Shown here: piece after piece, positions 18,057-63,067 of the stretch
Position numbering within the stretch: the stretch's first letter is position 1
How the letters are laid out: each line of letters opens with the position of its first letter
IMG/VR virus record: IMGVR_UViG_3300045988_138358
Source of the DNA: a virus
Lineage: Duplodnaviria; Heunggongvirae; Uroviricota; Caudoviricetes
Length of the DNA: 64,000 bases
Reading direction: 5' to 3' (one strand)
The notes under the pieces: model-generated
Database searches by the model: none
Told to the model about the DNA's origin: nothing
What the model saw: the letters and a program-made list of their open reading frames with translations, nothing else
Made by a program: the position numbers and the translations under genes

Positions 18057-18088
18057 TGTTATGTGATTTAATTTTAGTTTTCTAACAC
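18057..18088. promoter_or_regulatory. operator-like site (degenerate TGTTATG-N17-TCTAACAC) in the divergent region between the capsid gene and 18103
   Basis: Recurrent motif, see findings. Confidence 0.45.
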
Positions 18089-18102
18089 AAATCATTAGAG
18101 TT

Positions 18103-18495
18103 ATGGCGTATCGAATCTTTGTTTCGTATAAAAATGGCGCTAAGAGCCACTCTCTGAACACAACAAGTCGCTTTCTTGTTGAGGCGCAGTTGGCATCAAT
18201 TCTTGCCGAAAGTGAGATACTCTCGCTCGCTCAACGGATCGTTATCCAGTTTTCTGGTAGAGATATACTCAATGTCCCCGCCCTCACCCCGGCCTCCGAA
18301 GTTATGGAATCAATTAAATGGCCTGTATGCGGATGTCCTGCCAGGGTTGAAGAGCCGGTAACAGCAACGCTCTACATGCCGAAAGCAGTAAGAGATTGGC
18401 TTGCTATGGTTGGTAATGGGAAAGTCAGTGCTGGACTTCGCAAGTTAATTGAAATGGCAGATATTCCTGAGTTAAAAAACGCATGGCGACAATGA
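18103..18495 (+). CDS. hypothetical protein
   Basis: ORF track 130 aa; ATG confirmed at 18103. Confidence 0.4.
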   Translation: MAYRIFVSYKNGAKSHSLNTTSRFLVEAQLASILAESEILSLAQRIVIQFSGRDILNVPALTPASEVMESIKWPVCGCPARVEEPVTATLYMPKAVRDWLAMVGNGKVSAGLRKLIEMADIPELKNAWRQ

Positions 18496-18511
18496 GTAAA
18501 CAAGGGACAAA

Positions 18512-18970
18512 ATGAGCCACGTTAACCCATCAAAAACACAATATCGCTTAATGCTGGCGATCGCGTCAGCTATACCAACCAGCCTGAATCCCCCGGCAGG
18601 CTATCCCGCTGTTGTTGATGATTGTTTTCAGTATTACGGAGAAGACATCCTGAGCCAGTCCAAAGCGCTCAAGCAGTTATGTAAGGCAGGTATTCTTCAC
18701 TGTATCGGAGATCCGGACGATTTTGTTGTTATGCTGGCGGATCGTGACTCTTTTCTACTGTCCTGGAAAGCCGGTGCGCGCGAAGCACGTTTGGGGAATG
18801 GTATTGGTTACATAGACTATAGTGATTGTCCGCTGGCATTTGCTGGTGGATATATGCATTGGCATGAGCGAAATAGAGGCCGTCAGCGTCAGTATCGCTT
18901 GAGTGACTTTAACGTCTGTCACGGTTTCGAAGAAGCTGACAGCCAGGACATCTGGCTTCAGGAGCCTTGA
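18512..18970 (+). CDS. hypothetical protein
   Basis: ORF track 152 aa; 17 nt after the previous gene. Confidence 0.4.
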   Translation: MSHVNPSKTQYRLMLAIASAIPTSLNPPAGYPAVVDDCFQYYGEDILSQSKALKQLCKAGILHCIGDPDDFVVMLADRDSFLLSWKAGAREARLGNGIGYIDYSDCPLAFAGGYMHWHERNRGRQRQYRLSDFNVCHGFEEADSQDIWLQEP

Positions 18971-19290
18971 TCCCCCTTCCCTTCCCAAATCTCCCTGTTT
19001 CTTTGGTTATTCAGTGCGTTTCGTTGGTTGCATTCGTCGATCGTGCTGAATAACTGTTCAGCGTATGTCGGATACTTGTTTAACAGCACTGGCGTGTCCT
19101 CTGGCACTAAACAAGGGGAGTAATCAATCAGATTTGCCTGCGGCTTGCTGGTGGCTTCTACGGTAATTTTCACTGGCACGCTGGTTGATGGCTTTTGCCC
19201 GTTCCCGCTGCATCCTGATAACGTCATCAGGCACACGCACATCGTTAATCCCAGCACGGCGTAACGCATTTTCAAGGCGAGTGATTTCAT
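18958..19290 (-). CDS. o-spanin-like outer membrane lipoprotein (Rz1-like)
   Basis: ORF track 110 aa; signal peptide ending in lipobox LSGC; overlaps the 3' end of the i-spanin gene in another frame. Confidence 0.5.
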   Translation of the reverse strand: MKSLALKMRYAVLGLTMCVCLMTLSGCSGNGQKPSTSVPVKITVEATSKPQANLIDYSPCLVPEDTPVLLNKYPTYAEQLFSTIDECNQRNALNNQRNREIWEGKGDQGS

Positions 19291-19597
19291 TCTGGCTTTC
19301 CTCTCGTTGTTTGATTAGGTTGGCATTCAGTTCTGCTGTTTTGCGCTGGTACTCCTTTTCCAGTGCTTTAATTCTTTCGTTTTCGGTCAGCATGGCTGAG
19401 CGAGCGTTCTCACTTAACTGTAATGCGGTAGAAAGCGTGTTGTTCGTGCTTTCCAGTTGTGATTTTGAGTCTTCAAGCGATCGGACATACCTGATGTGTT
19501 CGATAACTGCCGTCGTTGTTCGGTAAATTCCAGAAATGGCTAAAAGCGCAATTACAATCAAAATTATCTTTTTCAAAACCATCCTCTCCAGGTTCAT
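19124..19597 (-). CDS. i-spanin-like protein (Rz-like)
   Basis: ORF track 157 aa; N-terminal transmembrane helix then long coiled coil. Confidence 0.55.
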   Translation of the reverse strand: MNLERMVLKKIILIVIALLAISGIYRTTTAVIEHIRYVRSLEDSKSQLESTNNTLSTALQLSENARSAMLTENERIKALEKEYQRKTAELNANLIKQREESQNEITRLENALRRAGINDVRVPDDVIRMQRERAKAINQRASENYRRSHQQAAGKSD

Positions 19598-19652
19598 TTT
19601 TGGTGTTAAACATGTACCAATTTACATCCCTTTGTGTGCCTAAGTGGTGTTT

Positions 19653-20459
19653 CTATGGTTCCTTTTTGGTGTTCTTTTGGAGCGCATCGATAACGCCTTG
19701 TGGCATGATTAAACTGATTGCCGGACTCATTACTGCATCATCCAGTAGAGAACCAGTTAACGTGATGGCGACAGCGTTCTCTAAACCTTTGGTTGCCTGA
19801 GTGGTTGACGTTTTAATGCGACCTGTAAGGGCTACGACATCCTCACTTGCTGAGTTAATTTCGGAGAGTAAAACTTCGGCGGCTGTCACTGCTGCCCGTA
19901 AAGCATCAATTTCATCCTGAGTAATGACTGGAGCCTGAGCGCCCCCAGCACCACCCTGTCCACCATTGCTTTCACCACCACCAGCACTTCCGGTAGCTTC
20001 AATTTTTGCGTTAATGGCGTTCATGGCGGTTTTCAGAGCATCAAGTTTTAGCGCCGTCAATGCGTCCGTTAGAGATTGCGGAATGGAAACATTCCCCATT
20101 CCCTCAACAAGGGCGAAAGCAGGTATGGGGGTCAGCTCGTTACCTTTTGCGTAGCATTCCCAGCCAATCTTCATCTGTAACAGCTCTGATGGTTTGGTGT
20201 ATGGGGAAAGAGAATCAGCCAGTAATGAAGACGCTTTGCTGGCCTCATTGAGCTGTTCGGAAAATCCAAGCAATTGAGTCGTCCAGGCCGACACTGAATC
20301 AGGATAGGTTTTATCAGGGTGAACCATTTCCTGTATTGCGCTCGCGAGTGACGAGGCTTTTGAAGAAGCCGCCCGGCTTATGGTTATTGATTCCGGTGTG
20401 GAGGCACCAGCACCAGACAGAATTTGGAAGGCTTTAACTTCACCTATTGAATCAAGCAT
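19653..20459 (-). CDS. hypothetical protein with Gly-rich linker
   Basis: ORF track 268 aa. Confidence 0.3.
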   Translation of the reverse strand: MLDSIGEVKAFQILSGAGASTPESITISRAASSKASSLASAIQEMVHPDKTYPDSVSAWTTQLLGFSEQLNEASKASSLLADSLSPYTKPSELLQMKIGWECYAKGNELTPIPAFALVEGMGNVSIPQSLTDALTALKLDALKTAMNAINAKIEATGSAGGGESNGGQGGAGGAQAPVITQDEIDALRAAVTAAEVLLSEINSASEDVVALTGRIKTSTTQATKGLENAVAITLTGSLLDDAVMSPAISLIMPQGVIDALQKNTKKEP

Positions 20460-20743
20460 TATGCGACCTGAAAAATATCCTCGCCGTTAGCGATAACAGA
20501 ACCACAAGAAAGCGGATCGCCTACGCAGACTACTCCCTTTCCACCTATTGAATACCATGCCCGTGTCGATACAGCCGATCCGGGATGTGCACTGTTGCCA
20601 TCTGTATGGCTGGGAAACATGGCACCATCCACAACAACTGGCTTACCGTTGACGGTGAACCAGGGAACGGTTTCAGCTACCAGTCGCGGCGGAAATCCTC
20701 CGTGACCGGAACAAAGTGTGTCGCTGGTGGCTATTGCGCTCAT
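20459..20743 (-). CDS. PAAR-like small Cys/His protein (tentative)
   Basis: ORF track 94 aa; GKPVVVDG and GDPLSCG patterns; ATG confirmed at 20743. Confidence 0.3.
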   Translation of the reverse strand: MSAIATSDTLCSGHGGFPPRLVAETVPWFTVNGKPVVVDGAMFPSHTDGNSAHPGSAVSTRAWYSIGGKGVVCVGDPLSCGSVIANGEDIFQVA

Positions 20744-20836
20744 TCTTCATCTCCTGGTTATTCGCCTATTGTCATCACTTTGTTATTTCGTCACTCAAAG
20801 AGAGAGTGAAATCACGGAACATTTACAATTCCCGTT

Positions 20837-20868
20837 TTGTTCTCAAATTGTTCTCAAATTGTTCTCAC
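20837..20868 (+). repeat. parC-like centromere: three tandem 11-bp repeats (TTGTTCTCAAA)
   Basis: Seen directly; further TTCTCAAA copies near 20903 and 20989; upstream of parM. Confidence 0.6.
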
Positions 20869-21020
20869 TTCTATCCAAGTGCCCGGCAGGCGATTAAAGA
20901 TATTCTCAAAACAACCTCAATTATGACTCTTATTTATCTCTAATTATGTGGATTTTCGATGCCTCCTCTTTTAAAATCATGATTTGATTCTCAAATGTGT
21001 CTCAGAAGTGGAGCAAGAAG

Positions 21021-21977
21021 ATGCGCATTTTTATCGACGATGGTTCAACAAATATCAAAATGCTGTGGGAACACGACGGGGAAACTCGCACGCACATCAG
21101 CCCTAACAGCTTTAAGCGCGGATGGTCAGCAACATTTGGTGCTGGCAAGCCATTTAACTATGTCATTGACGACGAAAAGTATTCGTATGATTTGATCTCG
21201 CCAGATGTTCTGCCGACGAATAACGTGGAATGGCAATACAGCCCGCTTAACGTCCTGGCTGTTCACCACGCCCTGCTGACAAGTGGCATTGAGCCGCAGG
21301 AAGTAGAAATTGTGGTTACGCTGCCACTGGCGGAGTTTTACGACGACGACGCGCAATACAATCTCGATAACATCGAGCGCAAGAAAGCCAGCCTTATGCG
21401 CCCCGTCACGCTGAATAAAGGCAATGTATTCACGATTAAGAAAGTTACGGTACGCCCGGAGTCTATTCCGGCAGGAATTGGCCTGTGCGACAATCTGACC
21501 CCTGCCCACTCTGTTCTTATCGTCGATTTGGGTGGAACTACCCTTGATGTTTCAATGGTCGCCGGGCAAATGACGGCAGTTTCCCGTGTTTTTGGCGATT
21601 CGAATCTTGGCGTCTCTCTGGTTACCAGGGAAGTAAGGCAAGCACTTGCCAGAGCCAATACCGAAACGTCAAATTACAATGTCGATCAGCTCATTATTAA
21701 CCGCCACGATGAAGATTATCTGAACGACAATATCAATGACCCATCAGCTATTGGTGATGTGAAAAAGGCCATTGCTGCAAGTATTGACCGTCTGCGTACC
21801 CGCGTTCTTGATGTGATTGGCGATTTTAAAGGATATACGCATGTCATGGTGATCGGTGGCGGCGCACCGCTGGTGGCTGATGCAATTCGCGAGCAAGTTA
21901 ATATTCGCGATGACCGTTTCTTCGTGGCGGATGACCCGCAACTTGCTCTTGTTCATGGCCTGAAAGCAATCGGTTAA
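21021..21977 (+). CDS. parM: actin-like partition ATPase ParM/StbA
   Basis: ORF track 20997-21977 starts at GTG; ATG at 21021 has GGAG upstream. N-terminus MRIFIDDGSTNIK..ISPNSFKR closely resembles R1 ParM as I recall it. Confidence 0.75.
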   Translation: MRIFIDDGSTNIKMLWEHDGETRTHISPNSFKRGWSATFGAGKPFNYVIDDEKYSYDLISPDVLPTNNVEWQYSPLNVLAVHHALLTSGIEPQEVEIVVTLPLAEFYDDDAQYNLDNIERKKASLMRPVTLNKGNVFTIKKVTVRPESIPAGIGLCDNLTPAHSVLIVDLGGTTLDVSMVAGQMTAVSRVFGDSNLGVSLVTREVRQALARANTETSNYNVDQLIINRHDEDYLNDNINDPSAIGDVKKAIAASIDRLRTRVLDVIGDFKGYTHVMVIGGGAPLVADAIREQVNIRDDRFFVADDPQLALVHGLKAIG

Positions 21978-21983
21978 CGAGGT

Positions 21984-22328
21984 ATGTCCATGTCTCAGGA
22001 ACGTAAGAAAGTGATGATTTATCTTCGCCCAGGGGCTTATGCCAATGAAAAGGCGGCGAGCGAGAAGATAAAAAAACATAGCGATATGGCAAGAACTGCA
22101 TTGTTGGCAGGGCTTGCGCTGGGAGAAGTCGATAGCAGGCTTCCTGGATTACTGGCTTCCCTGCTGACCGAAGACAATAACCCGGAGCAGATCCGAAAAA
22201 TGCTGGCATCCTTCCTGGAATTACCTGCTGCTGTTGAGGAGCACCCTGCCGCCATTGAGCCAGCGAAGGAGCAAGTTGTTGCCAAAAGCGTGTCGGCGCG
22301 TAATCTTGCTGATTCTCTACCTGATTGA
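21984..22328 (+). CDS. parR: partition adaptor ParR-like
   Basis: ORF track 114 aa, immediately downstream of parM. Confidence 0.55.
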   Translation: MSMSQERKKVMIYLRPGAYANEKAASEKIKKHSDMARTALLAGLALGEVDSRLPGLLASLLTEDNNPEQIRKMLASFLELPAAVEEHPAAIEPAKEQVVAKSVSARNLADSLPD

Positions 22329-22347
22329 TGGTCAAAACTCTATTTTA

Positions 22348-22372
22348 AGGCTGCAAATTGCAGCCTTTTTTG
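22348..22372 (+). terminator. intrinsic terminator after parR
   Basis: Hairpin AGGCTGCA..TGCAGCCT followed by a T-run. Confidence 0.6.
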
Positions 22373-22575: not shown

Positions 22576-22600
22576 AATAGAGCCAAAATAAAGCCGAGGT

Positions 22601-26136: not shown

Positions 26137-26143
26137 GTTTCAC

Positions 26144-26185
26144 CAATTGTGTTAGAAAATTCTATTCAATTATCTAACACAATTG
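26144..26185. promoter_or_regulatory. operator-like perfect inverted repeat CAATTGTGTTAGA-N16-TCTAACACAATTG
   Basis: 13-bp perfect arms, 16-bp spacer, ends ~8 nt upstream of the rdgC start. Confidence 0.6.
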
Positions 26186-32815: not shown

Positions 32816-33008
32816 AACAAAGCCTCTCAGTCATAACCTGGGGGAAACTGTATGCAGGGTGTGAAATGCGAGAAACAGACAGGCCACCAGTTCAGGGGGA
32901 TGTGGTTCATAAATCCCCTCACTGGTGACAAGTGACTTTCATTAATCTTTATGCGGGGGCCAGCTTCATTTGCTGGCATTAGATTAAAAATTAAACGGAG
33001 TGAATAAC

Positions 33009-33849: not shown

Positions 33850-34065
33850 GCTTTGGCGTTATGACTCCCTACCGCGCTTCGGCTGAAAGTTAATCGTCAA
33901 AAGAACCTTCAACGGGAGCCGTTAGCGCGATGGATTATGTGCAGTTTGTGATTTCCAAAATAGTGTCAACCACTTTTGGTGGATTTTATTTTTTAACCGA
34001 AATTTGGCCTAAATCATGTTTATGTAGTTAATTGTTTTTATAACATAAAACTTCATTTTGTTTGC

Positions 34066-35657: not shown

Positions 35658-35978
35658 TTTGACACCCCCAGCGCGAGTAAAGAATGCAGATTATCGCGTG
35701 AGTGGCGGACAACGAGTGATGGGAAAAGACAGTAGCTGTTCATAGTGTAGTGACTCCTTGCTTTCGGAGCCGCCTTCGACTGTTCCACGGTCTGGTGGCG
35801 GCGCAATAAAGGCTGGAACACCGTGAGTCAACGGGGGCTTTTCAGCCACCTATATTGCACCGCCATAGGTATAGCGGCGGCAATAATACGAAAAACTAAA
35901 CAGTTTGTCTCAAAAAGTTGACCGGTGTGCCAATCGGTAGTGAATGTACATCGGAGAAATTTACAATTCAACTTAAAA

Positions 35979-35989
35979 TGTTAGAAAAC
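35979..35989. promoter_or_regulatory. operator-like half-site TGTTAGAAAAC overlapping the ref stop codon
   Basis: Recurrent motif. Confidence 0.35.
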
Positions 35990-36567
35990 TAATTTATCAA
36001 TTCAATCGCCATCTGATACAACGTCATTTCATCGGCATTGTGCCGCATGAAATCTGCTTTTCCGCCTATTTTTCCATCAGCATGAACAGGGACCAGCCAG
36101 GGATATTGTTCTCGGACCTCGGCTGGCGCTGCGTACTGGTGGTGCCATTTACACAAAGGGAGGACATATTTATGCGCGTTCTCTGCCGTTCTCCCGAAGA
36201 TATGGTGCAGGGATACCACTGGGCTATGTTGCCCGTGAATATGGCAGGCAATGCAGGGGAGAGTACCGATAGCGGTCTGTATCCGGCGTTCATCGGCTGT
36301 GAGTGATCTGCCCTTCAGGCCGCGTGACGTGCGTGTTTTTTTGGGCGGAGCGGATACCGCTTTATCTTTTCTCCGCTGTTCATATTGCTTTGCTTTTTCA
36401 ATTTTCTTTTGCCGATATTCAGGCGATGCGGCTTTTTCTCTCGCTCGCTGCTGCTGGCGTTGAGCTTGTTGAAGGCGCTTTGCCCTTTGTTCCTCTCGCC
36501 AGGCTGGGTCAGCCAATTTTTGCATGGCTTTTTGTCTCTGTTTCTCCCAATAACTCTGTTTCTGCAT
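35989..36567 (-). CDS. ref: Ref-like HNH endonuclease (P1 recombination enhancement function family, tentative)
   Basis: ORF track 192 aa; Lys/Arg/Gln-rich N-terminus plus C-terminal Cys/His nuclease-like core. Confidence 0.5.
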   Translation of the reverse strand: MQKQSYWEKQRQKAMQKLADPAWREEQRAKRLQQAQRQQQRAREKAASPEYRQKKIEKAKQYEQRRKDKAVSAPPKKTRTSRGLKGRSLTADERRIQTAIGTLPCIACHIHGQHSPVVSLHHIFGRTAENAHKYVLPLCKWHHQYAAPAEVREQYPWLVPVHADGKIGGKADFMRHNADEMTLYQMAIELIN

Positions 36568-36615
36568 GATGGCAGTCTCTTACTTTTCAACGATTTTTCT
36601 ATGATTGATCAAAAT

Positions 36616-36645
36616 TGTTAGATATTCAAAATTGATTTTCTAACA
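36616..36645. promoter_or_regulatory. operator-like inverted repeat TGTTAGA-N16-TCTAACA
   Basis: Between divergent ref and the 36688 operon. Confidence 0.55.
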
Positions 36646-36687
36646 CAAAATATTAATATCATTCCTGATAACTGTTTGGAGGACATG

Positions 36688-40679: not shown

Positions 40680-40711
40680 GCCGGGTTACATCGTTTACGC
40701 GCTCAAAAGTG

Positions 40712-40741
40712 TGTTAGATTGTTGATTTTAATTTTCTAACA
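40712..40741. promoter_or_regulatory. operator-like inverted repeat TGTTAGA-N16-TCTAACA
   Basis: About 40 nt upstream of the 40784 gene. Confidence 0.55.
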
Positions 40742-40783
40742 TATTATTTTACCGCTCGGAACAAAACAGAGTCGGTATGCATT

Positions 40784-50920: not shown

Positions 50921-50977
50921 AGCACCCTCCTAAATAGGCGAGGGTACTTTACAGCAAAGACGTTAATCTAAAAAGAT

Positions 50978-50987
50978 GTGTTAGAAA
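50978..50987. promoter_or_regulatory. operator-like half-site GTGTTAGAAA upstream of the 50920 operon
   Basis: Recurrent motif. Confidence 0.4.
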
Positions 50988-50993
50988 TTTAAT

Positions 50994-52022
50994 TTACGAA
51001 TCCATCAGGCGGCTATTAGCCCCCACAGACACGCCGCCACGGCGAAGATACCGCATAAGTGTTTCCGGTTTCTTCCAGGTTCCTTCCTGCATGATCTCCA
51101 CCATAGACACCTGCTTTTCAGCCATATCAATAGCGGCCCCGACGCGTGCACTATGCCCGGTCCACGTCCGGTATCTTCCTTTGTTTGGCGTAGCATCTCT
51201 TTTATTCAGCAACACCCAGGCGTCGCTGAATATTTTCTCCATTGCAGGTGCAGTAAGGGGCGTTGTCGTGATCCTGGCCTTATTGCTACGGTGTATCGGC
51301 GGGAACAGCACTGCGTCAGGATGTTCGCGAAGCCCGGAAACATCCAGCCAGTCATTCAGCACAGCGGTAGTGCGACGGGAAAGCACCTTATCAAGCCCGG
51401 CGGCGGTCGTTATTGTCTTCGTGTGTGAAATATGTAGCGTGACAGTGTCACCTGTTTGGTCCAGATCTCCTACACGAATACGCGAGATTTCCGACATACG
51501 CATCAGCGTATTGTATGCAACAAAGAGAAAAGCCCGGTTGCGCAGGTCCACCAGCCGTTCTGACCTGGACAACAGGACGTCGAGCAGTTTCAGATCGTCC
51601 CACCGCAGCGGTATAGCCTGGCCTGTTCGTTCGCCTTTTTCAGTTGCCGCTTCGCGCCGGATGCGCCGCATAGCCAGAGAAACACTTTTATCATCCGAAA
51701 GTGGCGGAAGGCCACAATGCGAAAGCAGCATGTTCAGCATGGCGTAGTGCTTATCAATGGTGGTCGAAGCCAGATCGGCATCATGCAGCTGAAGAAAATA
51801 CTCGCGGGCCATTTCTGGTGAGATCGGAAACCAGGCAAGCTGGCGAGCGTGACACCAGCGCGCCCAGGAATGAAACACCAAACGGAGGTCGCGCAGAGTA
51901 TTCGGCGCATAAGCTCCCTGGTCATTCATGAACCGCATAAAGTTTTCTGCGGCTTCCTGGTACTCTTTGCCAATGTTGCGCAGAAAACCACCGGAACTGC
52001 CAGAGATAATTAATTCACTCAT
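50994..52022 (-). CDS. cre: Cre-like tyrosine site-specific recombinase
   Basis: ORF track 342 aa; C-terminus WTGHSARVGAAIDMA..EIMQEGTW..MRYL matches P1 Cre (WSGHSARVGAARDMA..EIMQAGGW..MNYI) as I recall it, catalytic His/Arg/Trp/Tyr in place. Confidence 0.85.
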   Translation of the reverse strand: MSELIISGSSGGFLRNIGKEYQEAAENFMRFMNDQGAYAPNTLRDLRLVFHSWARWCHARQLAWFPISPEMAREYFLQLHDADLASTTIDKHYAMLNMLLSHCGLPPLSDDKSVSLAMRRIRREAATEKGERTGQAIPLRWDDLKLLDVLLSRSERLVDLRNRAFLFVAYNTLMRMSEISRIRVGDLDQTGDTVTLHISHTKTITTAAGLDKVLSRRTTAVLNDWLDVSGLREHPDAVLFPPIHRSNKARITTTPLTAPAMEKIFSDAWVLLNKRDATPNKGRYRTWTGHSARVGAAIDMAEKQVSMVEIMQEGTWKKPETLMRYLRRGGVSVGANSRLMDS

Positions 52023-52207: not shown

Positions 52208-52379
52208 AAATTTAGGAATTTTTTTCCTTTCCGCGCAGATGGGCAATGCATTGCTGGTGTGGGCTTTAAGTTATGCCTGGCAGTTTTTAAGCAGAATTTT
52301 CTAAATTGGATGATAAAAAAATGCATCTTGATCCTTTACTCACCCTGTTATTCGGCATAGATTTGTCATAGTAATTTTA

Positions 52380-52390
52380 TGTTAGAAAAC
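52380..52390. promoter_or_regulatory. operator-like half-site TGTTAGAAAAC just upstream of the 52408 gene RBS
   Basis: Recurrent motif. Confidence 0.4.
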
Positions 52391-52407
52391 TAAATCGAGT
52401 AGGAATA

Positions 52408-53445
52408 ATGAGTAAGAAGTCGATCGAGAAAGAGTACAAACGGTTCCTGCAAACCGCTGAACGGTGGAAAGAGCTGGTGGTCGCAAACTCTGTTTTCCAT
52501 GATACCAGTTATTCCGGCGAGGAATTCCGCCATGTTGCACTAACACATGATCAGAATGTGCTAGAAGAAGCTGAAAAGTGCCTCACAGAATGGAAAGCCT
52601 TTGTTGACTTGTGCCGTAACGCTGACGGCAAAGCGTCTAACATTGTTGAGTCTGTATATTCTCCGATCCCATTCATTATCGAGGACACAAATCAAAGCAC
52701 GCATATTGTTGTGCAAAGCGCGACCACCACCCGCTCATTTACGCGCGAAAATCTGCTCAAAAAATATGATGCAATTATAAAGAAAAGCCTGAAAAACAAG
52801 ATATTTTCGCAGATTGTTGGTGCACTTGAAGAAGAGCGCCGTTTTTTCGCATCAGAACCTGAAGGGGAAGTTTACCGGGCGCGCAAAGATGGATACACAG
52901 ATGTAGTGCTTACAACAAACATTGAAGGCAGCAATGCTCTGTCACGATTCAGGGTAGGCGCACACGGAGCCTTAGTGTTCGCAAAACTTCCGAACACCAC
53001 AGTGCCCGTTGTTAATAATGTCGGCGAACGTCGCAGCATTACTATTTATTCTGGGGTTGAGTCGATACCTTGCGGCCTGCTTGGTGACTTTAGTCTCTAT
53101 CGCGTTCGCGATCTGGAGAAACACCAACCAAGCTATGTTGCGAAGTCATACATCTTGCGAAACATCGACATCCGCAATGAGAGCTTAAAGAACAAATCAG
53201 CCAAAATGCTTGAGGAAGCCGATCCGGCTATTCGCCATATCATTGAGCGTAAAATACAGACAGCACGCGAAGCGATGGCGAGACTGAATAAAATGGATCT
53301 GGAGTTGTTAGACGTAATGATGACATCCGGAGATGACCTGACAGGCATAAAACTGACAGACGCGCGGAAAAGATACGGTAAAACCATAGAAGAACGTTAC
53401 GGGTTCACTTTCTCCCAAACACAGCACGCCGCTAAACTCTGGTAA
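52408..53445 (+). CDS. hypothetical protein
   Basis: ORF track 345 aa; AT-rich upstream region; between lox-cre and the terminase genes. Confidence 0.4.
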   Translation: MSKKSIEKEYKRFLQTAERWKELVVANSVFHDTSYSGEEFRHVALTHDQNVLEEAEKCLTEWKAFVDLCRNADGKASNIVESVYSPIPFIIEDTNQSTHIVVQSATTTRSFTRENLLKKYDAIIKKSLKNKIFSQIVGALEEERRFFASEPEGEVYRARKDGYTDVVLTTNIEGSNALSRFRVGAHGALVFAKLPNTTVPVVNNVGERRSITIYSGVESIPCGLLGDFSLYRVRDLEKHQPSYVAKSYILRNIDIRNESLKNKSAKMLEEADPAIRHIIERKIQTAREAMARLNKMDLELLDVMMTSGDDLTGIKLTDARKRYGKTIEERYGFTFSQTQHAAKLW

Positions 53446-55025: not shown

Positions 55026-56389
55026 TAGTCATCCTCCGGCGGTTCTATCGCAATATCATCATCTCCGGCGTCATACCCTGCATCTGATGCATCATAATCA
55101 CCGTAAATTTCAGCCGTTGCCGAAGGGTCAATGTCCAACTCTTCATCGTTGGCCTCGAATTCCCCAGCCTTACGCTCGCCATTGTGGTCGTAATCTCCGC
55201 ACCCCAGATCTTCAACAATGGTTGCCACATCCGCCCGGCGCTCTGCCAGCCATTGCGGATGGTTAGCCTGAAGCGATGCAAACTCCTTCGCTTCTTTGTC
55301 CAGCTGTTCATCATCAACATCATTGATGTCAGAAACTGGAGGTTCGAGAAGAGTGATAGCTTTCGCCGCGCGCGCCGCGAGGATAGCCGGGACACTGACA
55401 CCCTGACGCTCGATGTATTCAGCAACACCGATATCGTCCAGCTCCTCGCGCTCACGCATACGTATAGCGGCGGCGATAACTCTGGCTGCGCGTGCGTCAG
55501 CGCCAATGCGATATTCAATCTCTTTGCCACGCTGTTCGGCCTGTAGGCGTGCTAATTCGAGTTTTTCTCTGGCCTCGGCCTCTCTGAATGCTTGCTGGCG
55601 AGCACCCTGACGAAGTTTTTCATCACCCTGTCGCAGCTTTTGTTCGGACTGATATATCGCTGCCAACCTACTGATAAAATCGTTCATGTAGTAGGCCGCG
55701 TCACTGATTAGACCGAGAAGTCGCTGCCCAGGGTGCATTCCTTCTGGCTGTTCATCACCCAGGGCGTCTATCTCCGCCTGTAGGCGTTCGGCCTCCTGAT
55801 CAACAATGCTTTGGTACTGAAGTGCGCGTTCTTGCGCCATTTGAATTGCTAACCGCAGGTGCTCTTCTGCGCCGTTCTTCATCATGTCGCGAGCCACACT
55901 CGTAGTGGGCAACGTGGCACGCTGCACAGCACCGCCAGGGATCATTGCTGAAGATCCCTCGATTTTTGAGGCGCATTTATCTTCGGTGGGGATCATTTTC
56001 GCCATTTTTTCGCGCAATGATCTCCTGACAGATTCTTTTATCTCATTGTTATTATTTGCATTATTTTCATGATCCGAAGTTTTCTTTCTCGGCATACTTC
56101 GGAAAGAACCTGTGCCCTGCGAATTGTCAATTTCTGTAAATTTTGTTGTTTCTGTACCCTCTTCTGGTCTTTTTTTTGCTCTTCCTGCCCGTTTTTTTTG
56201 AGGTGATTTGGTGCTTTTTTTTGTAGTCTTCACCTGCGACCGCACCTCATTTTTTTTCATATTGAGATGCTTTCTGGCGGTATTGAAGCTAAGGTCGTGT
56301 TGCTCGCAGTATTCCTTTACGGTGATCCCTTTTTCTTCACGCAACGCTATAAATTTGGCGCGGTGCTCTTCCCAATTAACCAGACTCAT
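55025..56389 (-). CDS. terminase small subunit-like (PacA-like) protein
   Basis: ORF track 454 aa; N-terminal HTH-like segment, acidic C-terminus, coupled to the large subunit gene. Confidence 0.5.
   Translation of the reverse strand: MSLVNWEEHRAKFIALREEKGITVKEYCEQHDLSFNTARKHLNMKKNEVRSQVKTTKKSTKSPQKKRAGRAKKRPEEGTETTKFTEIDNSQGTGSFRSMPRKKTSDHENNANNNNEIKESVRRSLREKMAKMIPTEDKCASKIEGSSAMIPGGAVQRATLPTTSVARDMMKNGAEEHLRLAIQMAQERALQYQSIVDQEAERLQAEIDALGDEQPEGMHPGQRLLGLISDAAYYMNDFISRLAAIYQSEQKLRQGDEKLRQGARQQAFREAEAREKLELARLQAEQRGKEIEYRIGADARAARVIAAAIRMREREELDDIGVAEYIERQGVSVPAILAARAAKAITLLEPPVSDINDVDDEQLDKEAKEFASLQANHPQWLAERRADVATIVEDLGCGDYDHNGERKAGEFEANDEELDIDPSATAEIYGDYDASDAGYDAGDDDIAIEPPEDD
55940..56075. 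other. GATC hexamer cluster inside the PacA-like gene (candidate pac site)
   Basis: Five GATC within ~135 bp as GGATCA, AGATCC, GGATCA, TGATCT, TGATCC. Confidence 0.35.
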
Positions 56390-56778
56390 AAAGCAACACC
56401 ACGCTTTTTAACGGCGGCATTCCACAGCTTATTCGCCATGTCCACCAGCTCTCGTTGCTCTTTTCGCGCCTGTTCGACTGATTTCCTGCTACAGTTTTTA
56501 ACCAGTAAGCTACCGTATTCAGGGGTGCGCCCGCGCACCTTGAACTGATATCCGTTCAGGCCATGCAACCAGTATTTCCGTGGGTAAACACGATCATCAA
56601 GCTCACAAATAGCTCGGCTTGACCGCACAAAATGCCGAATGATGTTGGTTACACTTACTCGTGAAACATGAAGGTGAGGATATTTTTCTTTAGCTAGAGT
56701 GGTGATTTCGGTGACTGTCAGATAGCAGTCAGCCCTAATCATGATATCCGCAATTTCTGCGCTGCTGATATGCTCCAT
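56386..56778 (-). CDS. hypothetical protein
   Basis: ORF track 130 aa; overlaps the PacA-like start; operator-like site upstream. Confidence 0.3.
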   Translation of the reverse strand: MEHISSAEIADIMIRADCYLTVTEITTLAKEKYPHLHVSRVSVTNIIRHFVRSSRAICELDDRVYPRKYWLHGLNGYQFKVRGRTPEYGSLLVKNCSRKSVEQARKEQRELVDMANKLWNAAVKKRGVAL

Positions 56779-56856
56779 TAATCCCCCAGGCAGGAAATGA
56801 CCGAGGGGATGATAATGAGAATGTTATTTCTGTATAGACTGGCAAAAAGTTGGTTA

Positions 56857-56886
56857 TATTAGAAAATTAATTCCATTCATCTAACA
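56857..56886. promoter_or_regulatory. operator-like inverted repeat TATTAGA-N16-TCTAACA
   Basis: Between the 56887 gene stop and the 56778 gene start. Confidence 0.5.
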
Positions 56887-57279
56887 CTACCAGCGAGATA
56901 AGCGAACGACGTGTTTTACCTTAGCGATCCACTTACCACGTGAGTTATTAATTACGGCCTGCGCCACCTTTAAGCTGACTTCAAAATCAGCCTTACGACC
57001 ATCAGAATCCACCAGCGTTGCACCGTCTATTTCCGGCAGGCTTAAATAATCCTGTTCTACCTCTAATGGCATTGACGGCTCTCTGAATGGTGTCAATTGC
57101 CGAGCTTTCCAGATAAAGCGAACTCTCAATCCCCTATAAGCCATTACCATGTAGCCTGTTATCGTGCTCTTATGGCCTGCATCAGTACGCGCAGCATTAC
57201 ACGATACAATCTTACAGGTGACGATATTCCACTCCACGTTGGAGACTTCGTGAATGCTTAATTTTGTTGTCTCGTACAT
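56887..57279 (-). CDS. hypothetical protein
   Basis: ORF track 130 aa. Confidence 0.3.
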   Translation of the reverse strand: MYETTKLSIHEVSNVEWNIVTCKIVSCNAARTDAGHKSTITGYMVMAYRGLRVRFIWKARQLTPFREPSMPLEVEQDYLSLPEIDGATLVDSDGRKADFEVSLKVAQAVINNSRGKWIAKVKHVVRLSRW

Positions 57280-57974: not shown

Positions 57975-57989
57975 GGTGGTGCCTCCACC
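57975..57989. ncRNA. short hairpin GGTGG-TGCCT-CCACC
   Basis: One of three hairpins with identical loop and covarying stems. Confidence 0.3.
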
Positions 57990-58307: not shown

Positions 58308-58383
58308 TGGTGGCCCCTACCGGACTTGAACCGGTGACCGTGCGATTATGAGTCGCCAGCTCTAACCACTGAGCTAAAGGGCC
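58308..58383 (-). tRNA. tRNA with CAU anticodon (Ile2 lysidine-type or Met)
   Basis: Hand-folded cloverleaf, 7-bp acceptor stem, T-loop TTCAAGT, CCA encoded; close to E. coli ileX as I recall it. Confidence 0.75.
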
Positions 58384-58392
58384 AGATTACTG

Positions 58393-58521
58393 TTAATTCC
58401 GCTTACGCTTTTTGCCAGAACCGCGTAAGGCTTTTGCCGCTTGCTCGATCCCATATGCAACCACCAGCAGAAATAAAAATGTCCAACCAGGGTTCTTATC
58501 GGCAAAGGCCCAAAAATCCAT
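58393..58521 (-). CDS. small hydrophobic protein, 42 aa
   Basis: Hand-found; one hydrophobic helix and basic tail; ends 10 nt before the CAU tRNA. Confidence 0.25.
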   Translation of the reverse strand: MDFWAFADKNPGWTFLFLLVVAYGIEQAAKALRGSGKKRKRN

Positions 58522-58572
58522 CACTTGCAGCTACCTTTTAAGACAAAACGCCATTGCTGTTAGATTGCGGTG

Positions 58573-58587
58573 CCTGGTGCCTCCAGG
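58573..58587. ncRNA. short hairpin CCTGG-TGCCT-CCAGG
   Basis: Second of three hairpins with identical loop and covarying stems. Confidence 0.3.
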
Positions 58588-58795
58588 TGACGTTAACCAG
58601 TTAACAATTAACGCCGGGATGTTTGATTTAACCACTAAGGAGGATTGTTTTAACTGTTCCGCGTGCGCTTAGCCGCATTCACCGCAATGGTAAGAGCACT
58701 TGGCTGGCTGGGCGGCGATGACGCCTGTACGCATTTGGTGATCCGGTTCTGCTTCCGGCATTCGCTTAATTAGCCAAATACTCTTAACGTTGCGC

Positions 58796-58882
58796 TGGCG
58801 GAGAGTAATGGAATCGAACCATCATCGCTTGCGCAATGGGACGGTTTTCAAGACCGCTTGAGCACCATGCTCCCTACTCTCC
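58796..58882 (-). tRNA. tRNA-Ser-like (UGA anticodon, long variable arm), divergent
   Basis: Hand-folded: 7-bp acceptor stem, anticodon loop CTTGAAA, long variable arm, T-loop TTCGATT, discriminator G, CCA encoded; D-arm unusual. Confidence 0.55.
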
Positions 58883-59028
58883 GGCCGTTGTGGTGGCCGG
58901 TACTGAATCTCCGGCATACGGTGCAGCCAATTAGGACTACGGACGATCACCGCTCGCGAAAGGGAAGATTTGCGGCCGCATTTCCCTAACATCCAAGAAA
59001 GCTATCGCATCAGTCTGCGAATCCACCA

Positions 59029-59118
59029 CAACGTTGAGAACACTGGTTGTCACGCTGCAACGCAACATTTATTCGTAGATTGGGATATGACCCCGTTACG
59101 TCAGTGTTCTCAACGTTG
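59029..59118. ncRNA. long hairpin: perfect 17-bp inverted repeats around a 56-nt interior
   Basis: Arms at 59029-59045 and 59102-59118 are exact reverse complements. Confidence 0.4.
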
Positions 59119-59265
59119 TAGTACCGGTTACGGTTCCGGCCAGGCCTCTTCCTCAACGGGGTATTCTCCATACGGACTACCGTTTATTGGTCGTTCCTGC
59201 GGTTTATGTTGTGAAGCCAGATGCTTATCTTCTGGTTGCTTCAAAGAGCTGCACTTCATCACAAC

Positions 59266-59339
59266 GGTAAGGGTACTTCGTAGGGATTCGAACCCTCTGC
59301 CAAGCACGGCGATCTCCGACGTCGCAAAATACCCTTACC
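59266..59339 (-). ncRNA. tRNA-like element: 10-bp closing stem around a canonical T-arm, no canonical cloverleaf
   Basis: Closing stem GGTAAGGGTA/TACCCTTACC with internal T-arm-like hairpin; I could not fold it as a standard tRNA. Confidence 0.35.
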
Positions 59340-59347
59340 TGTTGTGT

Positions 59348-59423
59348 TGGTGCCGATTAACGGACTCGAACCGCTGACATCCTGCTTACAAGGCAGGCGC
59401 TCTACCAACTGAGCTAAACCGGC
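59348..59423 (-). tRNA. tRNA-Thr (UGU)
   Basis: Hand-folded cloverleaf; anticodon loop CTTGTAA; T-loop TTCGAGT; CCA encoded. Confidence 0.75.
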
Positions 59424-59425
59424 AT

Positions 59426-59502
59426 TGGCGATGGTGGGTGGATTCGAACCACCGACCGACAGCTTAGAAGGCTGCTGCTCTATCCTACTGAGCTACACCA
59501 TC
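59426..59502 (-). tRNA. tRNA-Arg (UCU)
   Basis: Hand-folded cloverleaf; perfect 7-bp acceptor stem; anticodon loop CTTCTAA; 2 nt from tRNA-Thr. Confidence 0.75.
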
Positions 59503-60005
59503 ACTTGCCGGTTACGTCTCCGGCGAGGGCTTCCACCTCCGTATGCTTTTCGGCGCACCGCGCCCTGGCTGCAATTCGGTAACAGGGGATGCACAACCCT
59601 GGCTTCCAGCGTGATTAGCGCCTTCAGCATGACGGGATATACCCGTAACCAACAAACTTTCCCATATACCATCAAACAATGGCTGTTACGCGGGAGGGAC
59701 GTAACAGGTAAGGGCGCTGACCAGAAAGACCTGACCCTTCTCATTCATCTGGTTAATCACACCAGCGCCCTTGCCTGTTATGCCTCCCCGTTCCCTAATA
59801 CACAGACGGGGACACTCTGCGGTCGATTTTTTGACGGGGGACGACTCATACCCCGTGGCGTCTGGCTTCTTAGGCCGCTACCATCATCAGATCATCGTTT
59901 GCATTTACTTTAATGGTCGGTTTCTAAACCGCCGCAAAGCCGCTAACCATGACGAAAACCCTAAAAAAGCCCACCCGAAGATGGGCAAATACGCTACATC
60001 TCACA

Positions 60006-60084
60006 CAAGAAAGAAGCCGACTGCCTGAGCTGGATTCACTTTCAAATGCCCGCAGAAAGGGAACACAAGTCGGCTTCTTTCTTG
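60006..60084. ncRNA. long hairpin: perfect 17-bp inverted repeats around a 45-nt interior
   Basis: Arms at 60006-60022 and 60068-60084. Confidence 0.4.
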
Positions 60085-60212
60085 ATGCGGCACTCTCTCC
60101 GCCCGTCACCGCTCTGTCTCGGTTGTCGCGTTTGCCACGCCAGCCATAACGAGGTTTAAAGTCTTTGCACGTTTCCATCACTCGACTGCCGTCTGTGGCT
60201 GTTCGTTGCAGC

Positions 60213-60227
60213 GGGGGTGCCTCCCCC
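60213..60227. ncRNA. short hairpin GGGGG-TGCCT-CCCCC
   Basis: Third of three hairpins with identical loop and covarying stems. Confidence 0.3.
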
Positions 60228-60300
60228 TGGGGATATCCCCGGCCTTACCCCATTCTTTCAAGACACAATGCAAGGCCGCATCCGCATAGGTGCATTACCG

Positions 60301-60367
60301 CAACATTAAGGAGACTTAGGGCAAAAGGTAATCGCCACAAAAAAATCCCTATGCCTCCTTAATGTTG
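60301..60367. ncRNA. long hairpin: 13-bp perfect inverted repeats, 41-nt interior with nested TAGGG/CCCTA pairing
   Basis: Seen directly. Confidence 0.35.
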
Positions 60368-60375
60368 AGGATGTG

Positions 60376-60434
60376 CATTGATGATGATTCGATGCGGCGA
60401 GTCCCGTTACTCTCTGCCGGACCATCATCAATGA
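60376..60434. ncRNA. hairpin: 11-bp perfect inverted repeats (CATTGATGATG / CATCATCAATG), 37-nt interior
   Basis: Seen directly. Confidence 0.35.
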
Positions 60435-60576
60435 ACATCTTAAAAAGACCTTCCGTGGCTCAACATGTCTTGTCGTTTACTCCGTAAAGTGCTCTCTCTG
60501 AAACCACTTTACGCACTAAACCTGCTGAACTTTGGCTTGCTCGGTGCCAAAGCGAATCCCTGTATGCATGTAATTT

Positions 60577-60584
60577 TCTAACAC
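60577..60584. promoter_or_regulatory. operator-like half-site TCTAACAC in the tRNA island
   Basis: Recurrent motif. Confidence 0.35.
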
Positions 60585-60709
60585 TTTAATTTGTTATTTG
60601 CTGGTGGGCGAACAACAACCAATAAGTGACTATCAAGCCCAGCAAGCGAAATGTGGCAACGCTCCACCAGCAAGGAAAATTCTAAGTTAAGTTACTCTCA
60701 CAATCAATA

Positions 60710-60740
60710 TGTTCGTTTGGTGAAATTAGATTTCTAACAC
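60710..60740. promoter_or_regulatory. operator-like degenerate palindrome (TGTTCGT-N16-TCTAACAC) at the 3' end of the 60742 gene
   Basis: Recurrent motif. Confidence 0.4.
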
Positions 60741-60741
60741 A

Positions 60742-61950
60742 TTATTTCCCATAAAGATCTTCTACGCCCCCATTCTTCTTGTCCCATTCGTTAGCCCACA
60801 CCCGGCAGGCATCAATAATTTCTTGACGACGGTCGCCCTGCATAAAGGGGATGCTTTCATGAAAACTACTTGGGATACAGGCCACGCTGAATACGGTATC
60901 AAACGCAGTCTGTTTGATAGCTTCCAACGTCTCTGGGCGCATTTTCAATTCATCGATCGGCGCATCCTTAGAGTCCATAATCCGGCGATGCAGGCGCGGG
61001 AAATCAGTCTCCAGGTACGCCATAATTTTATCTGCCAGGCATTCGTCTATATCGGTATTCCAGTCCGTTTCGAAGCCGGGCAGGCGATAGTAAAGCGGCG
61101 TTCCCCATACTGATGGGATCACATCCATCGTCAGCAGGCGGTTGGTTCTAATTTGTTGATGGTAATTAGCCGTCAACAGAGCTTCACCACGCTGACCAGT
61201 CTCCGCAACCAGACCATGCGGGTACTCATGGATATAGGCAATAGCATCCACCCCGTCATACATGAGCGGGAATGTCTCTGGCCTTTGTCCCATACCACAA
61301 GCGCGGTTCAGATCATGACCAAGCTGTGAGCACTCTCGTTTCAGCGTTTCAATAATGTTCTGCGCTGCTGCTAACTTTTTACGCAGTGTGACGCCTTCGC
61401 CTTGATACTTAATGCATTGCTGATTCAGCTCTGTTAAACGCTCTTTTAGTTCCCGACGCTCTCTTTTCAGCGCACGGTTATCCTTCTCCGCAACATCCAG
61501 TCGTTTTGACAGACTGGCTGGATAGTCTTTTTTGTAACGACTCAAATCGGCTTCTGCGGATTTGCGCAGTGTGTTTGCCTGTTCAAGACGCGCTTCCAGA
61601 TTGCCGATCTCACTACGCATATTCGCGGCAAATTGATTAACAGCATTGCCAAGACTTTCAACTGTCGCTGATACGCCTGTGACTTGTGAAAAACGGATCA
61701 AGCCATCATTAACGGCTTGTTGATATTCCTCAAACTGATCCACCAGCTTGTTGTAATCAACCGTCCCTTCCTCAAGTAGCTGGTTGATCTCCGCGACCAG
61801 GTTATCAGTAGTGGCAATGACGCTCTCATGTAGCCGTCTAGACAGGTCATCCCCCGGATTCCGCTTTTGAATAAGGGCGATCTGTGTCCGCAGCGTTTCA
61901 ATCGCGGCTGAGATGATTTCCAGATTAGAAGTATCAGTTTGTTGACTCAT
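60742..61950 (-). CDS. hypothetical protein, N-terminal coiled coil plus C-terminal globular domain
   Basis: ORF track 60742-61962; the second ATG at 61950 has a better RBS. Confidence 0.4.
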   Translation of the reverse strand: MSQQTDTSNLEIISAAIETLRTQIALIQKRNPGDDLSRRLHESVIATTDNLVAEINQLLEEGTVDYNKLVDQFEEYQQAVNDGLIRFSQVTGVSATVESLGNAVNQFAANMRSEIGNLEARLEQANTLRKSAEADLSRYKKDYPASLSKRLDVAEKDNRALKRERRELKERLTELNQQCIKYQGEGVTLRKKLAAAQNIIETLKRECSQLGHDLNRACGMGQRPETFPLMYDGVDAIAYIHEYPHGLVAETGQRGEALLTANYHQQIRTNRLLTMDVIPSVWGTPLYYRLPGFETDWNTDIDECLADKIMAYLETDFPRLHRRIMDSKDAPIDELKMRPETLEAIKQTAFDTVFSVACIPSSFHESIPFMQGDRRQEIIDACRVWANEWDKKNGGVEDLYGK

Positions 61951-61982
61951 TGCAGTTCCCATTGTTTTTGCAAAATTAGTTT

Positions 61983-61990
61983 TCTAACAT
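61983..61990. promoter_or_regulatory. operator-like half-site TCTAACAT ~25 nt upstream of the 61962/61950 gene
   Basis: Recurrent motif. Confidence 0.4.
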
Positions 61991-62064
61991 ATTTTATTAG
62001 TATGAGAACAAGATCGAAAGATGTGATAAACAAAAAACCCGCTAATCGGCGGGTTTTTGAGCGG

Positions 62065-62379
62065 TTATTGTGTCATTGCCTGGTAGATAAAATACACGAT
62101 GCATACCGGTACGATAGCCCATTGCAGCAATGAAAGCAGCCTCATGGCTGTCATTGGAGTAACTCCGTCTACGTATTCCTTCTCTGACATTTTCCCTAAC
62201 CAACTAACCGACAAAAGGGTCGAGTTCTCCCCCATTTCCAGCTCCCTGAGGGCTTCCCGGATTAAAGGCGCTGTTACCACCTTGCGGGCAGTGTTGAGCG
62301 TAATGCTCCGCGTCCTCCCGGCGTCATCGGCAAACGCCAGGTTCACATGATATTTTTTGCTCAATGTACAAACTCCCAA
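62065..62379 (-). CDS. hypothetical protein with C-terminal transmembrane helix
   Basis: ORF track 104 aa. Confidence 0.3.
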   Translation of the reverse strand: MGVCTLSKKYHVNLAFADDAGRTRSITLNTARKVVTAPLIREALRELEMGENSTLLSVSWLGKMSEKEYVDGVTPMTAMRLLSLLQWAIVPVCIVYFIYQAMTQ

Positions 62380-62561
62380 TCATCAGCGCCTGTACTTTCC
62401 GGGGTAATGTGAACCTTATCACCAGTGACAATATTCCGAGCCTCTATTGTTCCATTGCTGTGTTTCAACAACTCAACACACAATGGTTGCTGCCAGGAAC
62501 GACGGCGAGCAACAACGTTAGCACCAGCAGGGATAAGTTCAGCCACGTTAAGTAAACGCAA
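62361..62561 (-). CDS. hypothetical protein
   Basis: ORF track 66 aa. Confidence 0.3.
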   Translation of the reverse strand: MRLLNVAELIPAGANVVARRRSWQQPLCVELLKHSNGTIEARNIVTGDKVHITPESTGADDWEFVH

Positions 62562-62575
62562 AACGATTTCTCCGT

Positions 62576-63067
62576 TTAATCAAGACAAACATATTCCGTG
62601 ATAGCTTTTATGGCTTCAGCGGCACTGCGCGCCTCAAAGCAGTAGTAACCTGCTTCGGTGAGGCGAGTCATCCAGACGAGTTGTTCGGGAGTCAGGCGAT
62701 TTCTCCCATGTTTCATCTCAATGCGCATTCCGTGGTATCCCCCACAAGCAAGGTCTATAGAAAGATCGGGATATCCCTTCTTTTGGCCCTCTGCCACCAT
62801 TTTTATTGCCGTCCTTATGCCTCGCAGACCGCCGTTTGGAGTGGCGTGTGTATGCTCATACACATAGCGCATATTGCGATACAACCAATCCAGGACGCGT
62901 ACCTGCTCGTAATGCTCATGGTTCCTTTTGATTAGATCTGGGTTTTTCTCCAGTTCTCTGAGAGCTGCGGCATGTGGTGATGTTTCAGAATATTCACTGC
63001 GACGCCTTCTTTTTCTCGCTATTTTTCTAACACACCCATTGATAGTAAATAAGCGAAATAATAACAA
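62576..63067 (-). CDS. VRR-NUC domain nuclease (start uncertain)
   Basis: ORF track 163 aa from a TTG; C-terminal ~100 aa show a VRR-NUC-like pattern (TPNGG, GYPDLSI, IEMKHGRNRLTPEQ); an operator-like site lies inside the annotated N-terminus. Confidence 0.45.
   Translation of the reverse strand: MLLFRLFTINGCVRKIARKRRRRSEYSETSPHAAALRELEKNPDLIKRNHEHYEQVRVLDWLYRNMRYVYEHTHATPNGGLRGIRTAIKMVAEGQKKGYPDLSIDLACGGYHGMRIEMKHGRNRLTPEQLVWMTRLTEAGYYCFEARSAAEAIKAITEYVCLD
63026..63033. promoter_or_regulatory. operator-like half-site TCTAACAC
   Basis: Recurrent motif. Confidence 0.35.

Follow-up and report, generated by a model that had tools for sequence, protein, structure and literature searches.

Dispersed TGTTAGA sites in a D6-like plasmid prophage as a likely operator set of a C1 homologue with a specificity distinct from that of P1

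The 64,000-nt stretch of DNA analysed here (IMG/VR record IMGVR_UViG_3300045988_138358, hereafter the window) carries a heptamer, TGTTAGA, which recurs upstream of operon starts and at several loci faces its own inverted copy. The question raised by these sites is which protein reads the motif, in what form, and at which genes. A preliminary description of the window had proposed a palindrome, TGTTAGA-N16-TCTAACA, bound by a dimeric regulator at twelve or more sites and reminiscent of the dispersed C1 operators of phage P1, or, alternatively, a site at which late promoters would be activated. This DNA is a D6-like plasmid prophage of the P1 family and showed 96.4% identity to Escherichia phage D6 (4-kb sample compared). 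The gene order was that of D6 throughout; window position 1 corresponds to approximately D6 37970, and the window spans the D6 origin and ends at approximately D6 10800. D6 (MF356679 / NC_050154) is the sequenced type phage of the cluster, and the gene names used here come from its annotation. No operators or promoters are annotated in the D6 GenBank records, and the comparison targets (operators, promoters) were taken from the annotated P1 record. The comparisons indicate that the motif is likely the operator set of the prophage master repressor, a D6-type C1 homologue encoded at 52408-53445, with a specificity other than that of P1. In all the comparative tests that could be applied, the feature held up as real and functional.

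The motif was far more frequent than expected from composition. At up to two mismatches, TGTTAGA-N16-TCTAACA had five matches against 0.16 expected, and none of 100 shuffles reached five. Three matches were exact (26150-26179, 36616-36645 and 40712-40741), one had a single mismatch (56857-56886, TATTAGA), and one had two mismatches (60710-60739, TGTTCGT). The inverted repeats first described were all found within 1 bp, and their fixed 16-bp spacer was kept at these five, but not at 18057-18087, where the spacer is N17 and the left arm is poor (TGTTATG). The half-sites at 35979, 52380, 60577, 61983 and 63026 were present as described, and the one placed at 50978 starts at 50979. The bare heptamer showed 18 copies in the window (6.5 expected). 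Fifteen of the 18 cores, aligned in one orientation, share the one-sided extension RTGTTAGA-AAA(A/T)(C/T)TAA(T/A)TT. The copies at 52636, 53306 and 58558 have no extended context, the first two lying inside the c1 open reading frame (ORF), and their tails scored −14 to −15 compared with +3 to +13 for the other 15. These three are chance copies.

A 22-column matrix was built from the 15 good half-sites of the window. It gave 16 matches at a score of at least 17, at 12 loci, whereas Markov shuffles gave 0.09. The matrix was trained on the sites that it rediscovers, so only the chance expectation is informative. The proposal of a dispersed motif at twelve or more sites was borne out, and all 12 loci lie upstream of operon starts, as had been claimed. 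The 18-kb late block of tail and head genes (window 1-18000) had zero copies of the motif. The bare palindrome, with 14 specified bases, was also scanned over 596 Gb, and only scattered single matches in unrelated taxa were found, as chance predicts.

The window-trained matrix found 16 strong sites in D6. Fifteen of the 16 cores were intergenic, although the intergenic share of the genome is 10.2% (binomial P = 2e-14), and the sixteenth lay in the 5′ part of an ORF that is probably drawn too long at this end. Beyond the part of D6 covered by the window, only two more strong sites were found, upstream of repL and of the icd-antirepressor genes (P1 OrepL and Oc4). C1 of D6 is 89.6% identical to that of the window, and its sites recur at the corresponding loci, while several weaker arms of paired sites differ.

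The repeated unit, RTGTTAGAAAAYTAATTT, is asymmetric and spans approximately 18-20 bp, with an invariant core TGTTAGA and an A/T-rich tail. Conservation runs for 10-12 bp to one side of the core only. True inverted pairs were found at four loci (26150, 36616, 40712 and 56857), and a fifth, at 60710, has a decayed partner. One arm of a pair is usually a full extended match, and the other is the core alone. The fixed 16-bp spacing is real and is best read as two facing units with overlapping A/T tails. The other reading of this spacing is a classical symmetric operator, a 30-bp palindrome bound by a dimer, in which the isolated half-sites would be remnants that work weakly or not at all. However, 7 of the 12 loci are single (18081, 35979, 50979, 52380, 60577, 61983 and 63026), including the most conserved site, that of the c1 leader, and at these loci the N16 partner position fits TCTAACA at only 1-4 of 7 bases. 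Single sites also scored equal to or above the palindrome arms. In three of the four palindromes the strong arm is unchanged between the window and D6, and it is the weak arm that varies: ref has TGTTAGA/GATTAGA, pdcB has TGTTAGA/CGTTAGA, and lpa has TCTAACA/CCTAATG. The strict 16-bp spacer of the four palindromes would suit a dimer, as would the hrdC pair, the only one that keeps both arms in D6, where the cores and flanks (CAATTG...CAATTG) are symmetric. Approximately 100 C-terminal residues of the repressor, mostly helical, extend beyond the BLASTP alignment to P1 C1 and could mediate oligomerisation. On balance, given the one-sided conservation and the single sites, we consider the symmetric operator unlikely, and the dimer-bound palindrome of the preliminary description gives way to an asymmetric unit, single or paired.

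The core of this asymmetric unit was also kept in more distant elements. The D6-type repressor was found in 155 plasmid records, mostly from Escherichia, Salmonella and Shigella. In five elements with C1 proteins 45-100% identical, TGTTAGAAAA was the only invariant block upstream of c1, and the surrounding DNA had diverged. The metagenomic relatives L007-L009 (C1 53, 50 and 45% identical) keep TGTTAGAAAA at the corresponding places: ahead of c1, ahead of lpa, and between the recombinase gene and the dut operon. No match scoring at least 12 was found in the 25 kb around c1 of the Citrobacter and Pantoea relatives, in which C1 is 27-28% identical.

The 345-aa protein had been named as a candidate regulator, and the comparisons support it as the right candidate. 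In a BLASTP alignment of 239 aa, the protein and P1 C1 were 20% identical (E = 6e-8), and homologues of the protein carry PF27008 (Phage_P7_repressor_C1). The NCBIfam model phage_rep_C1 gave 23 bits against an equivalog cut-off of 500, so the protein is a distant member of the C1 family and not an equivalog. The Pfam copy searched had no model matching C1. The likeness to the P1 regulon that had been suggested was supported by a locus-by-locus match to the annotated P1 operators (Table 1). It is improbable that these are real operators read by a phage or host regulator other than the C1 homologue. The protein-DNA link is one that we infer, and the element encodes many proteins of unassigned function; against such a regulator, about ten orthologous loci have their sites where P1 has C1 operators, among them the autoregulatory place at c1, and in elements from several hosts the motif goes together with D6-type C1. 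To our knowledge, it does not resemble the sites of E. coli regulators such as LexA, CRP and Fur.

The sites were compared with promoters, which are predictions from a consensus scan followed by lower-threshold scoring. The consensus scan called promoters at the sites only for hrdC, pmgM and the tRNA operon. At hrdC, a −10-like GATAAT overlaps the right core of the pair. The pmgM promoter (TTTACA-16-TATTAT, 63085-63058(−)) has 10 of 12 consensus matches, and the strong tRNA-operon promoter (TTGATT-17-TAGAAT, 60707-60679(−)) faces the tRNA cluster, with the operator 8 bp upstream of its −35. Lower-threshold scoring showed two layouts. In the first, the A/T tail forms a −35-like hexamer (TTGATT or TTAAAT), the core lies in the spacer, and the −10 hexamer is 8 nt past the core; this was found at orf88 (TTGATT-16-TAATAT), pdcB (TTGATT-17-TATTTT), orf117 (TTAAAT-16-TAGATT) and ref (TTGAAT-17-AATCAT). 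In the second, at c1, pmgS, pmgM and the second tRNA-operon site, the site is at or slightly downstream of the start. The core of the pmgS site abuts a −10-like TAAAAT (61996-61991). The c1 promoter, TTTACT-N17-TAGATT at 52335-52363, lies upstream of the leader operator, and its form TTTACT-N17-TA(G/A)ATT is kept in four lineages with the operator approximately 13 bp past the −10. The pmgM layout, with a degenerate copy over the −35 and a good copy downstream, mirrors that of P1 OpmgRa/OpmgRb around PpmgR, for pmgR-pmgS. Four of five promoter-downstream sites read TGTTAGA on the transcribed strand, whereas the promoter-overlapping sites read the opposite way. The 18069..18090 site probably controls orf52 (TTAACA-17-TTTAAT, 18044-18072); gene 23, besides this nearby TGTTAGA site, is preceded by a late promoter of its own (18013-17994).

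In the mechanism that we propose, one repressor molecule would bind each unit. Binding would occlude the promoter (orf88, pdcB, orf117 and ref) or block RNA polymerase just past the start (c1, pmgM, pmgS and the second tRNA-operon site). At inverted pairs with overlapping tails and cores 16 bp apart (hrdC, ref/orf88, pdcB and lpa), two molecules would occupy one 'bivalent' operator. Repression of lpa would keep the Lpa-dependent late operons silent in the lysogen, and the c1-leader site would give autoregulation.

Several points weigh against the assignment of the motif to C1 and against this mechanism. The case for binding and repression is wholly comparative. C1 and Lpa diverge together across the elements, and their co-variation therefore does not by itself identify the protein that reads the motif; gene class and geometry led to the assignment to C1. 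The 18081 site has no P1 counterpart. The strong sites at lpa and the tRNA promoter do not cover the promoter, being 8-11 bp upstream of the best −35, and most of the promoters predicted at the sites are weak. No homologue of the co-repressor Lxc was found at the syntenic ORF 63207-63467. Monomeric binding would follow from the analogy with P1 and from a predicted fold.

The late operons carry a different motif, AAATCACA-N7-YAnnnT. Four strict matches were counted in the window (0.45 expected) and seven in D6. The strict form precedes R, pmgB-sit, 23, mat, prt, ddrB and orf16, always co-directional with the genes. Variants were found upstream of lydA, 7, 26, upfC and lpa. In the window, the genes preceded by the motif or a variant are R, pmgB-sit, 23, mat, 7, upfC and lpa. 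A P1-type late promoter has a box that stands a fixed distance upstream of a −10 hexamer, is co-directional with morphogenesis or lysis operons and has no −35; this motif agrees with that definition, and the TGTTAGA sites do not. It is probably the D6-type late-promoter motif, distinct from the P1 box AAGTNACTT. The activator of late promoters, Lpa, is encoded by ORF 56386-56778(−) (PF25716, E = 1e-56) and is 31% identical to P1 Lpa; the late-motif variant AAATAACA upstream of lpa hints at Lpa autoregulation. That TGTTAGA is itself the recognition box of Lpa-dependent late promoters, with TGTTAGA-AAAC-TAATTT read as box, 4-bp spacer and −10 hexamer by analogy with the P1 '-22 box', is highly improbable: the geometry resembles the P1 late promoter AAGTNACTT-N4-TAnnnT, sites 18081 and 61983 so read point to gene 23 and pmgS, and P1-type late boxes are nearly absent from the window and D6, so D6 must use another box; but the orientation is inconsistent, with 35979 and 50979 firing into the 3′ ends of convergent genes, the sites at c1, lpa, ref, hrdC, the C4-like RNA and repL belong to genes that are C1-controlled early genes in P1, the late block has no copy, and the late operons have their own, strictly co-directional motif. 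The activator box of the preliminary description was rejected because of the variable orientation, the early and immunity genes among the targets and the separate late motif. The likeness to P1 Lpa late promoters (a box and a TAnnnT-like tail) is superficial, since gene class, orientation and spacing are unlike those of the TGTTAGA sites.

Sequences of the P1 late-promoter type number just two or three in the window and D6. P1-type late boxes were not enriched in the window (14 against 16.4 expected at 2 mismatches), and only two were convincing, at 32930-32948(+) (AAGTGACTT-N4-TAATCT) and 60697-60679(−) (GAGTAACTT-N4-TAGAAT). The latter falls on the strong sigma-70-like promoter that serves the tRNA operon, with an operator on either side. 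An exact 16-mer, GTCAAAAGAACCTTCA, was found at 17972-17987(−) and 33896-33911(+), in the leaders of gene 23 and mat and downstream of their late promoters. Its orientation relative to gene 23 is opposite to that relative to mat, and two copies at up to three mismatches are within chance (18 of 100 shuffles had two).

Table 1. Presumed repressor gene, candidate operator sites and probable late-promoter motifs in the window (positions are those of the whole 64,000-nt stretch).
Feature	Coordinates	Strand	Remarks
c1-like gene, 345 aa	52408..53445	+	Presumed repressor; D6 orthologue annotated 'prophage repressor, similar to P1 C1'
c1-leader operator, single	52377..52398	+	TTATGTTAGAAAACTAAATCGA; 10 bp before start codon; matrix 25.5; P1 Oc1
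lpa operator, paired	56854..56889		TATTAGA-N16-TCTAACA; left arm strong and conserved; upstream of lpa; P1 Olpa
hrdC-methylase operon operator, paired	26147..26182		Both cores kept in D6; P1 Odmt, upstream of uhr-hrdC-dmt
ref (−) / orf88...ppp (+) divergent operator, paired	36613..36648		Both predicted −35 boxes fall inside it, and each spacer holds a core; P1 Oref and Oppp
Operator upstream of C4-like RNA, single	35976..35997	+	Matrix 23.3; approximately 105 nt upstream of RNA gene; P1 Oc4 (c4-icd-ant)
pdcB...pmgU operon operator, paired	40709..40744		Right arm covers −35 and spacer; possible P1 counterpart OpmgT
orf117-dut-isaA (−) operator, single	50976..50997	+	Just past stop codon of recombinase (dre/cre-like) gene; P1 Ossb (ssb-isaA)
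tRNA-operon operator, strong single	60721..60742	−	Matrix 28.1; partner arm TGTTCGT at 60710 degenerate; P1 bivalent Oban (tRNA-tci-ban)
Second tRNA-operon operator	60565..60586	−	Matrix 23.8; approximately 90 nt downstream of tRNA promoter; orientation as first operator
pmgS operator, single	61971..61992	−	Matrix 27.4; between post-pmgR terminator (62058-62033) and pmgS start
pmgM-orf11-pmgR operator, single	63014..63035	−	Approximately 16 nt downstream of expected transcription start
pmgM degenerate copy	63089-63068		TTGTTTTACAAATCTAACG; overlaps −35 of pmgM promoter
orf52-orf53 operator, single	18069..18090	−	Top matrix score, 29.2; between gene 23 and divergent orf52-orf53; no P1 counterpart
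Late motif AAATCACA-N7-YAnnnT, strict	1994-1975, 9379-9360, 18013-17994, 33953-33934	−	
Late motif variants	29446, 20787, 56828	−	

P1 has 22 dispersed C1 operators with an asymmetric 17-bp consensus (PMC8546580). In the P1 record, the bivalent operators (Obanab and Oc1ab) are two inverted 17-mers that overlap by 6 bp and span 28 bp. Compared at the level of genes and sites, the D6-type sites are the same kind of control system. The repressors belong to the same protein family, and both systems have more than a dozen dispersed, asymmetric sites of approximately 17-20 bp, in both orientations, single or as inverted overlapping pairs. The target genes are also alike: c1, lpa, repL, c4-icd-ant, ref, dmt, the ban/tRNA operon, ssb/isaA and pmgR/S, of which the repL and icd-ant sites were found in D6 only, outside the window. 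The two systems differ in the size of the repressor (345 aa for the D6 type and 283 aa for P1), in the span of the pairs (30-32 bp here, compared with 28 bp), and in the coi gene, which was neither annotated nor apparent on inspection upstream of the D6-type c1.

The operator sequences are unrelated in both directions. The P1 operator ATTGCTCTAATAAATTT had no match within 3 mismatches in the window, which supports the early remark that the motif differs from the P1 operator. In P1, whose C1 is 20% identical, no strong D6-type site was found; the best score was 13.5, inside genes, and none was at a promoter. The alignment of the D6-type and P1 consensus sequences was no better than that of shuffles. 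The sites therefore appear to work like those of P1 without the P1 specificity. The recognition sequence differs from that of P1, so the immunity specificity should differ too, and the element should be heteroimmune to P1.

These results give an operator sequence, and hence a predicted immunity specificity, for the D6 cluster of P1-like phage-plasmids. The putative C1 regulon of the cluster is mapped cleanly apart from the late promoters, so that early and late transcription units can be annotated. The repressor and its candidate operator would also offer a second, orthogonal pair for P1-based tools. No literature match joined 'phage D6', 'C1 repressor' and 'operator' in a search that did not cover the D6 genome paper, where the operators are possibly already described; the motif strings matched only unrelated primers.

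The 345-aa C1 has no solved structure or sequence-level relative in the PDB, including in an hmmsearch of the C1 alignment against PDB sequences. An AlphaFold2 model was made from ten homologues and had a mean predicted local distance difference test (pLDDT) score of 84.7 and a predicted template modelling (pTM) score of 0.57. A Foldseek search of the PDB with this model gave only four significant matches, each to a complex of E. coli Tus with DNA (probability 1.0, E from 2e-7 to 6e-6), and the next match had E = 0.1. The template modelling scores (TM-scores) between the C1 model and Tus were low (0.35-0.41), and the sequence profiles gave an hhalign probability of 0.3%. A search of the viral folds in BFVD with the C1 model gave no significant match. 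The predicted fold thus resembles Tus at the fold level only, and we regard it as a lead rather than a result.

As a monomer, Tus recognises a Ter site that is asymmetric and approximately 21 bp long, which would fit an asymmetric operator of 18-20 bp, and P1 C1 has been reported to be a monomer. It is conceivable, although we hold it to be somewhat doubtful, that the C1 proteins of P1- and D6-like phage-plasmids are Tus-fold proteins, each clamping an asymmetric site of approximately 20 bp as a monomer. The known function of Tus-Ter is different, being fork arrest there and transcription control here. If confirmed, a Tus-like fold would give a mechanistic reason for the asymmetric operators of the family and would explain why P1-type operators work singly and in either orientation. 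The D6-type site, whose core TGTTAGAAAA is kept down to 45% repressor identity, would then be a second, orthogonal specificity of the fold. In a bolder extension, the promoter-distal sites may act as orientation-dependent roadblocks. No literature match paired 'Tus-like' with 'C1 repressor' or 'phage P1'. A likeness between the operator and TerB (TATGTT..AACTAA; TerB sequence from PMC4499146) was rejected, as the best gapped alignment was no better than 20% of shuffles.

The C4-like antisense RNA lies at window 35791-35870(−). Rfam RF01695 matched it with 40.2 bits (E = 8e-6), slightly below the gathering score of 45. No long ORF on the minus strand follows this element in the window as a candidate for the icd-antirepressor pair of the D6 annotation.

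ARAGORN found four tRNA genes (Met, Ser, Thr and Arg) at window 58308-59502(−). The D6 record places its tRNAs on the + strand and names the last one Asn. The genes tciA and tciB, present in D6, are missing from the window (a segment of roughly 600 bp).

Iteron arrays of the GGTGTAAGATTTGCCCTCAA family lie at window 9559-9686 and 10462-10757, on either side of a repA-like ORF (9677-10465). Five tandem copies are upstream of this ORF, and the downstream copies are scattered, some of them inverted, as in the incC/incA arrangement of P1. Chi sites (GCTGGTGG) number 49 in the window, 20 on the + strand and 29 on the − strand, and Chi-containing 9-mers were the top over-represented words in the Citrobacter and Pantoea relatives too.

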